64,000 bases of DNA from an uncultured Planctomycetia bacterium (GTDB taxonomy: Bacteria > Omnitrophota > Gorgyraeia > Tantalellales > Tantalellaceae). The stretch covers positions 64,684 to 128,683 of the forward strand of contig CAYPCX010000001.1 in assembly GCA_964409365.1 (NCBI GenBank). Reading direction: 5' to 3'. Below are positions 54,001 to 60,000 of this stretch, piece by piece (within the stretch, counting starts at the first letter, position 1; each line of letters starts with the position of its first letter). The position numbers were made by a program.

Positions 54001-57000
54001 GGCAATGTGTATGAATGCTGTGCTTTATTGCAATGCCATTCCGGTTTTTGCTGACGTTGATCCTGACACTTTTTTGATAAACCCCGTTGATTTAAGAAGA
54101 AAGATCACTAAGAAAACCAAAGCAATTATGCCTGTACATCTTTATGGTCAGGTTTGCAATATGACCGAAATCATGGAAATTGCGAAGGAATTCAATTTAA
54201 AGGTTGTAGAAGATTGTGCCCAGTGCTACTTAGGTACGCATAAAGGGAAGATTGCTGGCACATTTGGAGATGTAGGCAGTTGGAGTTTTGAGAATTCAAA
54301 ACATTTAACTACAGGAGATGGCGGGATTATAGCCTGTAATGATGAAAAAACAGCGGAAAAAATAAGGAAATTAAGCACTTGCGGGTTTCGCAATGCTACC
54401 GCAAAAAGCGGCAAGGTTAGAATAGATAAAGATATATTTCAGAACCCAAAGTACAAACGACACGATACATTTGCTTTTATGTACAGGATGCCTGAAGTTG
54501 CTGCAGCTTTGGGGTTAGCGCAGCTTGAGAAAATAGATTGGTTTATCGAGAAAAGAAAAAAAATGGCTTCAGTGTATTCTGAGGTATTATCAGATTCCGG
54601 ATGTGATTGGATCAAACCCCAATTCGTGCCGGAAGGTGATGAGAATTCTTATTATACGTTTGGAGCGCGCTTCTTGCGTGAGGACATAAAATGGGAAGAT
54701 TTCAGAAAGAAGTATGTGCAGAACGGGGGTGACGGCATATACGCGGCGTGGGTGCTGACCTACCTGGAGGACTCTATAGACGATGTCAGGAGGGTTCTCG
54801 CATCTATCGGACTCTCCGGGAGGATAAATACGGAAGAAGGCCTCTGCCCCGTTGCCGAGAAGGTCCAGAAGCAACTCATGCAGTTCACTACGAACCAGAA
54901 GGACGAGATCGAGATGGAAAAGCAGGCCGAAGCTTTGAAGAAAACCGTAAAGTATTTTTCGTAAAAAGGAGAGTGAAAATATCCAGATTCCATAAAATGC
55001 TGGATTTTTCAGGTAAGACGGTGGTGGTCTCGGGCGGCCTTGGCCTGATGTGGTAAATCGGGAGTTGATATGAAAAAAGAAAAAGGCAGAGTTCTGTTCC
55101 TTTATCCCGTCACGGAGGGTGACGGGGGCATACCCAACGGGATGGCGCTGCTTTCCGGGACGTTAAAGCAGGCGGGTTTTGAGACCGCGTGCTTTGACAC
55201 CACTTTCCTATATTCTCCGCCGAAAACACATCTTTACCGGCAGAAGCACGGCGGTATCGACAAGGCGGAACATACGGGATTCTGGGGTGAATGGGATCCG
55301 GATATGCCGAAAAAAATACCCGGGTTGTTCTTGAAAAAAATAAAGGAGTTCAAACCCGACCTCATCGCCGTTTCTATTGTCGACGTTTCGTATGTTTACG
55401 CTGTTTCGCTGTTAAGCGAAGTGAAGAAAGAGGTAGATATACCGGTCGTTGCCGGCGGTGTGACCGTCTCTATGTGTCCGGACATGGTTCTCGGCAATGA
55501 CTGCATCGACGTTGTATGTATCGGAGAGGGAGAAGACCCTATGGTAGAATTGGCCCAGGCCATAGTTGCCGGCGATGATTACAGTAATATAAAGAACCTT
55601 TGGGTCAAAAAGGGACAGGATGTCATAAAAAACCCTCTCAGGCAATTGAAGAACATGGATACAATTGCCTTCCAGGACTGGTCAATATTCGATGAGAGGC
55701 ATTATTATAAGCCTTATTGCGGGACGTTTTACCGCACAGGTTTTTTTGAGCTTGCGAGAGGATGCCACTTTAACTGCTCGTTTTGCAGTACCGCGAGCTA
55801 CAGGAAATTATTCCACGGTAAGGGTAGTTTCGTGAGGACCCGGGATATCGATAAAGCTTTTGACGAGATTGAATTTGTCCGGGACGCGAATGATCTCCAG
55901 CTGATCTTTTTTATCGACGACAACTTCCTGGGCATGCCCCGCGACAGGTTCGAATATTTCTGCCAACAGTATAAAAAGAGGATAGATTTACCGTTCTATA
56001 TCCAGACAAGGAGCGAGGTTGTTACTGAGGAGTACGTAAAAAGACTGAAAGACATCAACATTTCCACTATCGGCATAGGCATAGAACACGGCGACGAGAA
56101 CCTGAGAAAAAAGATGAACCGCTATATGAGCAACGAAGATCTTGAGCGAGCTTTTGAGATCGTGCATAAATATGACATAAGATCGACCGCAAACATTATC
56201 ATAGGTATGCCTTACGAAGAAGAGTCTATGTTCAAAGAAACGATCAAGCTGCTCAAAAAGATCAAACCCAAGAGCATTTCGATAAATTACTTTCAGCCGT
56301 ATCGAGGCACCCTGATGAGGGAACAGGCGGTTAAATTGGGGTATTTGCCCGCTGATCATATCATAACCGATTCGAACGTGTGCATGGATATGCCTCTTTT
56401 TCCCAGGGAAAGGCAGGTCCATTTTTACGAGAACTTCTCAAAATATATTGATGGAGAACTTGAATTAAAGGATTTTCGACAATAACAAGGACACAATAAA
56501 ATGTTTGACATTAATTTTTTCAAAGATTCTTATAAAATTAAGCAGAAGATAGTAAGCCGCATAGGGCAGATAACTGCTGAGGAAGTGTATACACAGTTCG
56601 AAAAACAACGCAACACAAGGCCATTTGTGTTTAACATTGAAACCACAAATGTTTGCAATATGCAATGTGTCATGTGTCCGAGACCAAAGCTTATGAATCG
56701 ATCAATTCAGCACATGAGTATGGAGCTTTTTGAAAAGGTTGTAAGACAAATAAAACCGCACACTAAAGATGATTTAATGAGTTTTTGGGAATTTGTCAGA
56801 GAAAAATATGGGGTTTCATCAGAACTAAAAGACGAAAACACTTTTTATTTTCACACTGTCGCCAAGTCTCTTACGCTTCACGGATTTGGTGAACCGTTGT
56901 TAGATCCTTACATGAACGAAAGGATTTTATTGTGTTCCGCACTAAATATCCCTACTTATTTTTCCTGTGTACCAGCGAATATCAATGTAGAAAAAGTCTG

Positions 57001-60000
57001 GGATATGATGAAAGCAGGGCTAGGTACAATAAAGTTCAGTATAGATTCCCTTGATGATTCAAAGCAAAAAGAAATACGGGGGGAGAATAATAATTTTACA
57101 GATTCTTATAGAAAAATATCTGAGTTGGCAAAGTTAAAGGCAGCAGACCCTTCAGTGAAGACGCAGATGATAGCTACCATGATTGCGCTATCTGATGCCG
57201 AAAAAGATAGGAAGACATATGTTGATTTCATGAAGCTATGGAAGGATAAACCAATTTTTGCGTATATAAAAAGCCAAGATAACCGGTGGTTTCACAAGGA
57301 AGATGAAGAACCGGAATGCAGATCTCACTACGAACAACAGTATTGTGAGTTTCCATGGATGTCTTTAACGGTTATGGTTGATGGTTCTGTAGCACCCTGC
57401 AGCCAGGATTATAATTGTGAAATATCCATGGGTAATGCTAATACCGAATCATTAGAAGACATCTGGAATAATGCTAAGTTTGACCAATTAAGAAAATGGC
57501 ATATTGCAGGCGGTTTTCCCGGAGATTATAAATGTTCTGAGCGATGTGATCTTAAATTGCTTTGCGACAGACTATCCTCTGTAAGTGATTTAAACAGAGT
57601 TTAAACATATTGCAGACATTAAGTAAGGATATGCATGAGCGATGAATGCTTGATATTGATAGATGACATAAGGCCTACGGATGATGTCCTGGCGGACCTG
57701 AGGCGTATCCTTTCCGGGGAAAAGGGCAAGATCATAGCCTTGGGGGAGCCCGTATTGATGATGTTGCGCAACGTGTTCCCGGATTGCGTGAGCTATCATG
57801 ATTTCGAAAGGGAAGGGTCTTATGAAGGCGTGTACGACACGGCGGTAAAATGGGGGCGCCGGTGGTACAAATGCGACGGGAACGATCTTACGGAAGTGGA
57901 AGGATTATCCCTGGGCAGTACGGTGGAATGGTCCGTTATTAATCTTTTTTCTTCATTTTTACAAATGTACGTATCATTGGAGGATATCCTGAACCGTGTC
58001 GAGGCGTCCCGGGTAATTCTTGTAGGGCCCAAGGACAAGCCCCGGGACATCACGGAATGCGGCACTATAGGTATAACCACTGATCGTATCTTGAGATTTC
58101 TTTTATCCCGCGATGAATATAAAGGGATAGATCTGAAGATAATAGGCCTTGATTCCACCCAAAGATTTTTATCGATAAGAGATACCAGGCGGTCAGCCGT
58201 CAGAGCGCTGGCGGGCGGGATGAACAAGATCATCGGGGAGTTGCGCGCGAAGCTGGACCCCGCAAGAACGAAAAGACCCGGCATAGTGTTTTTCGAAGGG
58301 GCGCATCATTTTCGGCCTCTTTTCGTGTCCGGCGCTTTTCGGGACTATGACCTTATACATCTCCAGAAGACCATAGGGCTGTCTCTTGCTAAAGAATTAT
58401 ATTCCGCCGGCGTGCGAGTGGTCCCCCTCGACCGGATAAAACCAAAAAAGATAATGAACATGGATTCACGCGCCGGACTGGACCCCCTGGATAGAGCCCC
58501 TTCGGGCGCGTTCCATTTCAGGGGCAGGGACCTGCTGCCGTGTTTCAGGGAAGACCTGGAAGCGATATACAAAGGATTTTTGGCCAGGTCGGCCTGCTAT
58601 GACCTGTCGCTGGTATCATCGGCGCTCGAGGAGATATCGCCGGGTTGTGTCGTTACTGAAAACGATACTACATACTATGAAAGAATGATCGTGCTGGCCG
58701 CGAAACGCCTCGGGATACCGACTATAGTACTTCAGCACGGGAGCACTTTTTACGGGAAAGCCTGTAACGGGGACGGGCTCGCCTGTCATGCTTTTATACC
58801 TATAACGGCGGATAGATTTTTCGCTTACGGGGAGGCGACATGCGACTGGTTCCGCAATATGGGAGCGCCTGCGAACCGTGTGGTCGCTACCGGGTCGCCG
58901 AGATTCGACGTTTATTACCGGGAGAGGACCGCCGGAGAGCGCGCCGGGCGCAAAAAGGTCATGCTGGCATTAACGGATGTCTGGGTAAGGGGGACAGTGC
59001 CAAAATCCCATACTTCTTTGTGCGTATTTTTTGAGCAGATAAAAGTTTTCATGAAAGTGGCTTGCGGAATGAAAGACGTGGATTTCATTGTGCGGCCTCA
59101 GGATACCATGAACAGGTGGAAAGACCTTTTCCGGAGAGAGCTCGAGGATTGCCGTAACGTTACCATCTCCAAAAAGGGTTCCATGCAAGAGGTCTTAAAG
59201 GACATTGACGTGGTGGTGGGCCATACGACCACGGCCCTGATAGAGGCCGTCATATGCAAGATTCCCGTTATAAGCCTGGACATAGGAGAATTTACCGACG
59301 CGGTGCCTCTCTGGAAATACGGTTGTTCGGCGCGCGTGTCGTCTTATGAAGAATTGCGGGATATATTAGGGGAACTTCTTACGAACCCCGCGGTCCGGGA
59401 GGATCTCGTGGAAAAGGCTTATGCAAATATACAGATGTTCAATTACGGAAATGACGGTAAAGCCACCGAAAGGGTAGCCCGGGAGATAATAGAGACGGTA
59501 AAACGGGGTGTGCCGGTCGAAAAGAGTAAAGGGCGTGAGAGGATATATGCGTGATCAAAGAGAACAGTTCTGGAAGACGAGAGCGAAGAATTACGAGCAG
59601 CTCGAATGGGCTATAAAAGGAGGCTATTTGCACGCTTTTCTTGACGCGGGTGAGTTCCGGCCTGATGACCACGTGCTCGATATCGGAACCGGCACGGGGA
59701 TCATCGCACACACCATATCCCCGCATGTGGACAAGGTGATAGGCGTAGATATCTCGGGAGATATGCTTTTACACGCTTTCGACCACAGGACCGACAACGA
59801 GGAGTTCATCAGGATGGACGCGACGTCCCTGAAGATCAAGGATAATACCTTTTCGAAGGTGACGGCGCGCATGGTGTTCCACCATATACTCGAGGATACG
59901 CAGAAGGCCATGGACGAATGTTACAGGGTCCTGAAGCCCGGCGGCAGGATGATATTTTCAGAGGGTGTGCCGCCGACGGACCATGTGAAGCCGTTCTATG

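Follow-up and report, generated by a model that had tools for sequence, protein, structure and literature searches.

Nonulosonic acids (NulOs) cap many bacterial and archaeal surfaces and govern phage, host and immune recognition. To our knowledge, all characterised NulO routes use only NAD(P)-, pyridoxal phosphate (PLP)- and acyl-CoA-dependent enzymes, and we know of no radical S-adenosylmethionine (SAM) step in the known routes to N-acetylneuraminic acid (Neu5Ac), legionaminic acid and pseudaminic acid. What, then, are two radical SAM genes doing inside the NulO module of an uncultured bacterium? The module lies in a 64,000-nt stretch (hereafter the window) of an uncultured Planctomycetia bacterium (GTDB lineage Omnitrophota; Gorgyraeia; Tantalellales; Tantalellaceae), contig CAYPCX010000001.1 of assembly GCA_964409365.1, positions 64,684 to 128,683 of the forward strand. 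Our answer, to which we give somewhat better than an even chance, is that the two genes encode NulO tailoring enzymes in a horizontally acquired six-gene cassette and act by the steps proposed below. The enzyme classes and the cluster type are known; what is new is their conserved combination. An earlier reading of this DNA (the sequence-only reading) had remarked that known NulO pathways lack radical SAM enzymes, and our full-text literature search agreed, finding no paper that links radical SAM enzymes to NulO pathways; the Leptospira NulO paper made no mention of radical SAM genes.

The cassette and the gene that follows it are as follows (coordinates in the window; GC, G+C content as a fraction).

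50883 to 51917, + strand: NeuB2, a divergent NulO synthase (PF03102, 246 bits; TIGR03569, 367 bits, below the cut-off of 399.65; GC 0.375)

51910 to 53037, + strand: NeuC-type hydrolysing UDP-GlcNAc 2-epimerase (TIGR03568, 401 bits, cut-off 236; GC 0.393; gene call from L001, a locus of the window's own contig)

53030 to 53746, + strand: cytidine monophosphate (CMP)-NulO synthetase, a NeuA/PseF-like CTP_transf_3 cytidylyltransferase, here called NeuA (PF02348, 92 bits; PseF model TIGR03584, 158 bits, cut-off 206; GC 0.381)

53759 to 54964, + strand: DegT401, a 401-aa DegT/LegC-like PLP aminotransferase (PF01041, 283 bits, with residues 9-282 alone matching; GC 0.428)

55070 to 56485, + strand: B12-binding-domain radical SAM enzyme (B12-rSAM), 471 aa, putative C-methyltransferase (PF02310 and PF04055; GC 0.455)

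56501 to 57604, + strand: Twitch-type radical SAM enzyme, 367 aa, putative sugar alcohol dehydrogenase (PF04055 and PF13186; GC 0.370)

57635 to 59554, + strand: 639-aa putative NulO transferase, related to LIC12162 (homology to a protein of locus L148; host-like GC)

Both radical SAM open reading frames (ORFs) that the sequence-only reading had placed at 55070-57604, co-oriented between a LegC/PseC-like aminotransferase and a putative transferase, were confirmed on the + strand. So was their setting in a NeuB/NeuC/NeuA module, through the TIGR03569, TIGR03568 and PF02348 matches and through the recurrence of this embedding in independent contigs. The gaps are 105 nt from DegT401 to B12-rSAM, 15 nt (previously given as 16) from B12-rSAM to the Twitch gene and, as previously given, 30 nt from there to the 639-aa gene. 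Ribosome-binding sites of the GGAG/AAGGA type precede both radical SAM genes and the next gene.

The six genes from NeuB2 to the Twitch gene (50883-57604) differ in composition from everything around them. All flanking genes, including the upstream NeuB1 and the 639-aa gene, have a GC of 0.50-0.54, and GC at third codon positions is 0.31-0.56 in the cassette versus 0.59-0.75 in the flanks; the B12-rSAM gene, at 0.455, is intermediate between cassette and flank values. The contrast between GC 0.37-0.46 in the cassette and 0.50-0.54 in the flanking genes makes its horizontal acquisition probable, from an Omnitrophota relative of low GC like L148. This closest locus is an Omnitrophica contig with a GC of about 0.35, and its proteins are identical to those of the window at 87% (a helix-turn-helix protein, HTH_17), 77% (NeuB, to NeuB2), 73% (NeuC), 69% (NeuA), 83% (DegT), 82% (B12-rSAM), 69% (Twitch) and 70% (a downstream methyltransferase). 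Between DegT and B12-rSAM, L148 carries a HisF/HisH fusion and a WbuX amidotransferase, both of which the window lacks; the window therefore holds a shorter form of a mobile NulO cassette. The full six-gene set also occurs together in L147, L145 and L148 (B12-rSAM 77%, 69% and 82% identical, respectively), and L011 (B12-rSAM 40% identical) has NeuB, NeuA, DegT, Twitch and B12-rSAM genes without NeuC.

The 639-aa protein shares 33% identity over 622 residues (E 5e-125) with a 622-aa L148 protein that carries PF27859 (LIC12162), and weakly matches TIGR04396 ("surface carbohydrate biosynthesis") and the BFO_1060 glycosyltransferase family. In Pfam and NCBIfam library scans it did not itself reach the TIGR04331 and PF27859 models. 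The protein in its position in L010 is a TIGR04331 LIC12162-family transferase (474 bits). By this homology and position, the 639-aa protein is likely the transferase for the CMP-activated product.

The Twitch-type protein had been described as a SPASM-domain enzyme. It does match PF13186 (SPASM, 49.6 bits, cut-off 21.5) besides PF04055 (44.2 bits), with a cluster motif CNMQCVMC, and scores 24.7 bits against the SPASM model TIGR04085, below the cut-off of 27. In an alignment of 34 family members, the invariant cysteines are 52, 56 and 59 (the radical SAM triad), 156, and 282, 300, 345 and 349; the additional Cys273, Cys306 and Cys355 of the window protein are not conserved. Because exactly four C-terminal cysteines are invariant, the family would hold one auxiliary cluster and not the two of a true SPASM domain, and the two-cluster pattern (seven to eight cysteines, CX9-15GX4C ... 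CX2CX5CX3C ... C) was absent at the family level in the 34 members. The description as SPASM thus stands for the Pfam match and not for the cluster content, and the protein is best classed, from its conserved residues, as a single-auxiliary-cluster Twitch enzyme with a BtrN-like auxiliary domain. In the PDB, BtrN is the sole sequence match of the window protein, and the family profile finds it at E 9.3e-16, with C282, C300, C345 and C349 aligned to C169, C187, C232 and C235 of BtrN. BtrN also ranks first in a Foldseek search with the AlphaFold2 model (pLDDT 87.8). Clear similarity is confined to the auxiliary domain (61 bits). The reaction of BtrN converts an alcohol to a ketone, and its auxiliary cluster has four-cysteine ligation (PMC10337720). 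The family is sizeable: at least 120 clusters at 90% identity, of which the best 120 are all at least 45% identical to the window protein, and, in a library clustered at 50%, 320 representatives at E ≤ 1e-30, about 16 of them full-length and scoring above 290 bits.

Which genes stand beside the Twitch gene? Among 11 non-redundant Twitch loci, six carry the DegT401 subtype (the window, L147, L145, L148, L011 and L100) and four have a short-chain dehydrogenase/reductase (SDR) gene directly 3' of the Twitch gene (L142 from Nitrospina, L143, L144 and L146). DegT401 and SDR occur together in none of the 11, one contig being too short to judge. Because DegT401 and the SDR both act on carbonyls, this gene pattern suggests that the Twitch enzyme produces a carbonyl, making a keto or aldehyde sugar which would then be transaminated or reduced; the sequence-only reading had not put forward such an oxidation feeding an aminotransferase. 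DegT401 scores 233 bits against the LegC family model (cut-off 420) and forms a distinct DegT subtype. It retains the catalytic lysine position, with FENSKHL opposite the FFGNKII of perosamine synthase in the alignment. Its full-length orthologues, in L148 (83% identity), L147 (79%), L145 (74%) and L011 (48%), always occur with a Twitch gene. In the PDB, its relatives are nucleoside diphosphate (NDP)-sugar 4-aminotransferases, the 2-deoxy-scyllo-inosose (DOI) aminotransferase BtrR (165 bits) and the transaminase KdnA (5k8b; 153 bits), which serves 8-amino-3,8-dideoxy-D-manno-octulosonic acid (Kdo8N) synthesis.

A close known parallel is the BtrN/BtrS(R) pair of butirosin (2-deoxystreptamine) biosynthesis, in which a Twitch enzyme with one four-cysteine cluster and a DegT-family PLP aminotransferase likewise stand together and convert a secondary alcohol to a ketone and then to an amine. 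The window protein exceeds BtrN in length by about 100 residues and has a conserved extension at its N-terminus, a core insertion and the invariant extra Cys156, and its context is a NulO cluster and not an aminocyclitol cluster. In the KdnB/KdnA system of Shewanella, a hydroxyl of an ulosonic acid is likewise oxidised and then transaminated by a DegT-family enzyme. The oxidant there is a metal-dependent alcohol dehydrogenase, whereas a radical SAM enzyme is predicted here, and the substrate is 3-deoxy-D-manno-octulosonic acid (Kdo), not a nine-carbon NulO. As a separate observation, an iron-dependent alcohol dehydrogenase gene lies directly 5' of DegT, NeuA and the B12-rSAM orthologue in L010 (6824-9293), and this order, by analogy, resembles the KdnB/KdnA oxidation-transamination pair in a NulO cluster.

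The invariant Cys156, which is not a cluster ligand, also fits another activity. The Twitch enzyme might be a radical SAM epimerase like NeoN or HygY, which would take a hydrogen from a sugar carbon and let a cysteine thiol give one back on the opposite face, thereby altering the NulO configuration, with DegT and the SDR acting elsewhere in the pathway. We regard this as unlikely, since the strict pairing with either DegT401 or an SDR is what a carbonyl-producing enzyme predicts, and the auxiliary domain is nearest in sequence to the dehydrogenase BtrN.

Turning from the predicted dehydrogenase to its neighbour, we found that the B12-rSAM protein combines a B12-binding domain (PF02310, 52.3 bits, cut-off 32.1) with a radical SAM domain (PF04055, 86.6 bits). 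Its cluster motif, C232-x3-C236-x2-C239 (CHFNCSFC), is invariant in 31 homologues. The AlphaFold2 model (pLDDT 93.4, pTM 0.91) has a radical SAM barrel, and the top PDB folds found by Foldseek are TsrM, MgmA (a glutamine C-methyltransferase), AprD4, CysS, OxsB and TokK. The class-B architecture proposed for 55070-56485 in the sequence-only reading was thus recovered by both Pfam models and by the fold search. Among NCBIfam models, BchE, the MJ_1487 family, PhpK and HpnJ score best, in each case far short of the cut-off. GenK, GenD1 and Fom3, C-methyltransferases for sp3 carbons in sugars or in a CMP-activated substrate, share this architecture, with a B12-type Rossmann domain at the N-terminus and a radical SAM barrel after it. 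We found no specific sequence relationship of the window protein to these three, and no solved-structure match to them among our searches. In gentamicin biosynthesis, the carbon that GenK has methylated is then oxidised and transaminated, the same three chemistries that are predicted for the window cassette. By analogy with its class, the B12-rSAM enzyme is most likely a C-methyltransferase for an unactivated carbon. According to PMC11659888, this is the commonest class-B radical SAM chemistry, and most characterised members are methylases.

The third fold in that list leaves room for a different reaction. The B12-rSAM enzyme could be an AprD4-like 1,2-diol dehydratase, or an enzyme of another rearrangement such as ring contraction or cyclisation, acting on the NulO glycerol side chain with a Rossmann domain that holds no cobalamin. 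AprD4 has the same fold as class-B enzymes and uses no cobalamin. It is the third-best structural match of the protein (rank 6 by chain; E 2e-20, TM about 0.7) and its second-best PDB sequence match (45.5 bits), and it acts on an aminosugar, paromamine; moreover, class B includes enzymes other than methylases, such as BchE, OxsB and HpnJ, the first and last of which rank among the protein's top NCBIfam matches. Set against this, PF02310 scores above its cut-off, the AprD4 family model NF033070 gives only 39.3 bits against a cut-off of 500, the structural likeness to AprD4 is no greater than that to the cobalamin methylases, and the best-scoring folds are such methylases, as are, according to PMC11659888, most characterised class-B enzymes. 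We consider a non-methylase slightly less probable than the epimerase, and unlikely overall. AprD4 and AprD3 remove the C3' oxygen in apramycin biosynthesis, and the Twitch and SDR pairs of the sister loci resemble their dehydratase-plus-reductase logic. Unlike that pair, however, the window has an aminotransferase as the partner, and the SDR elsewhere partners the Twitch enzyme, not the B12-type enzyme.

The prediction of a methylase and a dehydrogenase leaves the question of whether NulOs are their target, which we approached through gene neighbourhoods. Loci were gathered through exact-protein look-ups and two scans, one of metagenomes, for which the window protein was the query, and one of genomes, in which the matches listed were distant paralogues only. 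Their six-frame ORFs were searched with profiles built from the window genes. Counts were made on non-redundant loci, and a locus was taken as NulO-positive if a NeuB, NeuC or CTP_transf_3 (NeuA) gene was present. For B12-rSAM orthologues of at least 440 bits (about 56% identity or more), NulO genes were found in 12 of 13 loci, or 13 of 14 counting L148. The sole exception in this bin is L092, a 4.5-kb contig that holds only the B12-rSAM, Twitch and 639-aa genes, in the order of the window. The fraction fell to 14 of 30 loci for paralogues at 230-440 bits (31-41% identity), and to 4 of 93 below 230 bits. The genome-contig profile scan, used as a negative control, gave among the matches listed only paralogues at no more than 41% identity, and no cultured named organism with a B12-rSAM orthologue was among them. 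A tblastn search of a plasmid collection found homologues at no more than 27% identity only (Azospirillum, Brachyspira, Solidesulfovibrio).

Orthologues of each radical SAM gene adjoin NeuB, NeuC or NeuA in Omnitrophota, in a Nealsonbacteria genome of the Candidate Phyla Radiation (CPR), in Nitrospina and in a Deltaproteobacteria metagenome-assembled genome (MAG). B12-rSAM paralogues of about 40% identity lie near NulO genes in Methanoregula and Candidatus Scalindua, and carriers at lower similarity also include a Thermodesulfovibrionales MAG and a Rhodospirillaceae MAG. Because independent contigs of other lineages also place these genes within a NulO module, the association is more than chance. 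The direct neighbours of the B12-rSAM orthologue vary (NeuA, NeuB, NeuC, WbuX, DegT or Twitch), as expected if the enzyme tailors the NulO itself and does not depend on a single constant partner.

The sequence-only reading had treated the two radical SAM genes as a pair. They are indeed co-located in the NulO module, but the pairing is not obligate. B12-rSAM accompanies NulO genes with no Twitch orthologue detected in the available stretch of L009, L094, L095, L096 and L098, and Twitch with SDR occurs without the B12-rSAM gene in L142 and L143. Where both are present they are usually adjacent, B12-rSAM and then Twitch (the window, L092, L146, L147 and L148). From this distribution, the two enzymes look like separate tailoring steps that are often combined.

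Two further features of these neighbourhoods were seen. In some Omnitrophota, CPR and archaeal glycan loci, four to seven B12-domain radical SAM paralogues stand side by side (L005/L093 from Omnitrophica WOR_2, L084, L082, L037 and L031), which suggests that such uncultured anaerobes tailor their surface glycans extensively by radical chemistry, through methylation or otherwise. In addition, genes for WbuX-family N-acetyl sugar amidotransferases (TIGR03573, 339-371 bits) lie directly 5' of the B12-rSAM orthologue in three loci, with HisF/HisH-like partners in L005 and L148:

L005, 8782 to 9990: WbuX gene

L146, 8765 to 9988: WbuX gene

L148, 5891 to 8564: WbuX gene

In these loci, formation of an acetamidino-NulO may be combined with the radical step.

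The glycan locus is at least 40 kb long, and one or both of the radical SAM enzymes might modify another glycan component, such as a different sugar, a lipid carrier or a phospho-alcohol substituent; their nearness to NulO genes would then merely reflect that the whole locus serves to build a single polymer. The related loci with four to seven B12-rSAM paralogues would fit this, as would the Twitch and SDR genes in L143, where no NulO genes are visible. What makes it improbable is the orthologue-specific gradient (13/14, 14/30 and 4/93), the interleaving of the radical SAM genes with NeuB, NeuC and NeuA in several orders, and their travelling with the NulO genes as one compositionally distinct cassette.

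Maturation of a small peptide of the RiPP type (ribosomally synthesised and post-translationally modified), the alternative raised in the sequence-only reading, was rejected and has next to no probability left: the Pfam SPASM match and the frequency of SPASM and B12-rSAM enzymes in RiPP clusters (seen here as low-score NCBIfam matches) speak for it, whereas only one auxiliary cluster is conserved, the conserved neighbours across more than 10 loci are all sugar genes, the 105-, 15- and 30-nt gaps contain, as that reading had also observed, no precursor ORF (the sole small ORF being an SDR-like fragment of 19-27 codons), and a Pfam scan of the window neighbours found no RiPP recognition element (RRE) domain, peptidase or dedicated exporter. 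That reading had named constant company of RiPP genes, and never of sugar genes, as what would speak against a role in NulO synthesis; we found the opposite, NulO genes in 13 of the 14 orthologue loci.

Returning to the two enzymes as NulO tailoring enzymes, we propose the following scheme. NeuC, NeuB2 and NeuA would make and CMP-activate a nine-carbon sugar of the Neu5Ac type. The BtrN-like Twitch enzyme would use the 5'-deoxyadenosyl radical to abstract the hydrogen from one carbinol carbon, its single auxiliary [4Fe-4S] cluster would carry off the electron, and a ketone or aldehyde would result; candidate substrates are an NDP-N-acetylhexosamine precursor or the nonulosonate itself. DegT401 would turn this carbonyl into an amine, and in the sister loci an SDR in its place would lead to an epimer or a deoxy product. 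Independently, B12-rSAM would use methylcobalamin to methylate an unactivated carbon, either in the same sugar or in its N-acyl group. GenK acts in this way on a carbinol carbon of a sugar, and Fom3 on one of a CMP-activated substrate; by analogy with them we speculate that a hydroxymethyl carbon could be the methylation site, either C9 of the nonulosonate or C6 of the hexosamine precursor. The 639-aa LIC12162-like protein would then pass the CMP-activated product to the surface glycan. From this scheme we infer an amino-deoxy, C-methylated nonulosonic acid as the product.

The cassette shares NeuC, NeuB, a CMP-synthetase and a LegC-like aminotransferase with the Neu5Ac, legionaminic and pseudaminic acid pathways, and here too genes for a transferase and a flippase lie downstream. 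Unlike the legionaminic and pseudaminic acid pathways, it lacks the NAD-dependent 4,6-dehydratase (LegB/PseB) and the N-acetyltransferase (LegH/PseH); what it has instead is the two radical SAM enzymes. None of DegT401, NeuB2 and the cytidylyltransferase reaches the equivalog cut-offs for the legionaminic and pseudaminic acid enzymes.

Several points weigh against the proposed scheme. AprD4, the third-best fold match, is a cobalamin-free sugar diol dehydratase, and cobalamin binding is not readable from sequence; we found no sequence rule for it in the review PMC13331322. No NCBIfam equivalog came near its cut-off for either radical SAM protein. The alternation of DegT401 and SDR, six against four, is a small sample drawn partly from related Omnitrophota, and Cys156 would fit an epimerase too. 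The cassette contains no N-acyltransferase for the new amine. Finally, either radical SAM gene occurs without the other, so that the two enzymes may act in either order and may or may not share a substrate.

Beyond the cassette, we can only tentatively suggest, at less than even probability, that Omnitrophota, CPR and other uncultured anaerobes make a sialic-acid-like class of sugars not known before, in which cobalamin-dependent radical C-methylation is joined to an oxygen-independent amination, by a radical SAM dehydrogenase and an aminotransferase, that replaces the NAD-dependent 4,6-dehydratase step common to the known 5,7-diamino nonulosonic acids. Methanogens and anammox bacteria might possibly be among the carriers, given their paralogues of about 40% identity. 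As part of the same tentative picture, and held no more firmly than the whole of it, C-methylation might extend the carbon skeleton or the N-acyl group, for example to a 9-C-methyl, ten-carbon "decaulosonic" acid. If the conserved, mobile cassette does bring two radical SAM enzymes into NulO synthesis, sialic-acid-like chemical space is wider than thought, with C-methylated or newly aminated backbones; strict anaerobes would own an oxygen- and NAD-independent route to aminate NulO sugars; and two sizeable uncharacterised radical SAM families would gain their first biological context. The compact six-gene unit predicts new sugar chemistry and could be tested by heterologous reconstitution.

A possibly more tractable relative was noticed in Campylobacter fetus, a cultured pathogen. 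In the table of phase-variable genes in PMC6321876, a SPASM-type radical SAM protein, an SDR, a methyltransferase and a formyltransferase stand in one locus. Among the entries of that table, radical SAM genes of the "MoaA/NifB/PqqE/SkfB family" lie by SDR genes in an apparent surface-glycan locus (CFT03427_1545-1581). Judged by annotation, this might be a tractable relative of the Twitch and SDR pair.

The remaining features of the module are given below.

49331 to 49358, + strand: promoter-like site, TTGACA-16-TATAAT (12/12 consensus match only), 48 nt upstream of the HTH_17 gene

49406 to 49645, + strand: 79-aa HTH_17 (excisionase/MerR-like) gene heading the NulO module (PF12728, 52.5 bits; gene call from L001)

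49720 to 50733, + strand: NeuB1, N-acetylneuraminate synthase (TIGR03569, 502 bits, cut-off 399.65; PF03102 and SAF; GC 0.52)

54998 to 55057, + strand: 19-codon ORF MLDFSGKTVVVSGGLGLMW, possible relic of an SDR N-terminus (short resemblance)

59628 to 60296, + strand: class I SAM methyltransferase, 222 aa (Methyltransf_11/25 matches; the 70% identical counterpart of the L148 methyltransferase)

60293 to 61036, + strand: CDP-alcohol phosphatidyltransferase-like membrane protein (PF01066, 27 bits)

61033 to 63810, + strand: 925-aa Wzx-like flippase fusion with an N-terminal Polysacc_synt domain (PF13440 and PF01943 matches)

Promoter and terminator scans within the module gave counts equal to those in shuffled sequence, except for the perfect promoter at 49331. 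The HTH_17 gene could be a regulator or a mobility remnant. Its 87% identical homologue has the same position in L148 (1557-1796), and an 81-aa HTH_17 gene heads the L009 cluster of Nealsonbacteria (2794-3039). NeuB1 and NeuB2 are tandem paralogues, about 39% identical as judged via their matches to the L148 NeuB, and given both, the cell may make two different nonulosonic acids. The NeuB that adjoins B12-rSAM in L005, L010 and L148 scores higher against NeuB2 than against NeuB1.

In the gap between DegT401 and B12-rSAM, exactly where L148 carries HisF/HisH and WbuX, an ORF of 19-27 codons ending in MLDFSGKTVVVSGGLGLMW occupies 54973-55057. It resembles the N-terminus MVLEGKTIAVIGGNGLIG of the SDR encoded 3' of the Twitch gene in L142, a match short enough to arise by chance. 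The ORF might thus be the scar of a recombination event, or have arisen by chance.

Read as its longest ORF, the methyltransferase gene begins at a GTG at 59508 and shares 47 nt (59508-59554) with the end of the 639-aa gene; the ATG at 59628, used in gene calls on identical contigs, is probably the true start. A gene of the CDP-OH_P_transf family follows the methyltransferase in L148 as well. BLAST found no match between it and the window gene, and the two belong to the same Pfam family, PF01066.

The 5' part of the window consists of housekeeping genes (miaB-like, miaA, hflX, hrcA-grpE-dnaK-dnaJ, two GGDEF genes and LptD). Its DnaK shares 86-89% identity with the DnaK of many MAGs labelled Candidatus Omnitrophota, and the named top matches all fall in Omnitrophota or in Candidatus taxa that we place within it, which makes the organism an uncultured member of this phylum. 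From about 22.5 kb to the window end runs a single long co-oriented surface-glycan locus of at least 40 kb, which is found in identical form on metagenome contigs of 158-393 kb from several samples. It contains RmlA/B/D, a UDP-glucose dehydrogenase, a carbamoyltransferase, a GDP-mannose dehydratase, perosamine-synthase-like aminotransferases, glycosyltransferase family 2 (GT2) enzymes and membrane glycosyltransferases of the PMT_2/YfhO type. The two GGDEF diguanylate cyclase genes are in tandem (16462-19268), one with a GAF domain, directly upstream of LptD and the glycan locus.

Just 5' of the NulO module, the region 37814-46909 encodes an ALG6-like protein, two PMT_2 proteins and a YfhO-like protein (GT-C type), together with a GDSL/SGNH protein and a GT2 enzyme. 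This GT-C run suggests periplasmic or outer-face glycosylation from lipid-linked donors. On the 3' side of the NulO and radical SAM module, sulfotransferase, ATP-sulfurylase, APS-kinase or sulfatase genes were found both on the contig of the window itself and at two related loci:

L001, 18738 to 21416: sulfation-type genes, just past the 3' end of the window

L011, 15908 to 19487: sulfation-type genes

L148, 14453 to 17772: sulfation-type genes

The surface glycan may thus also be sulfated.

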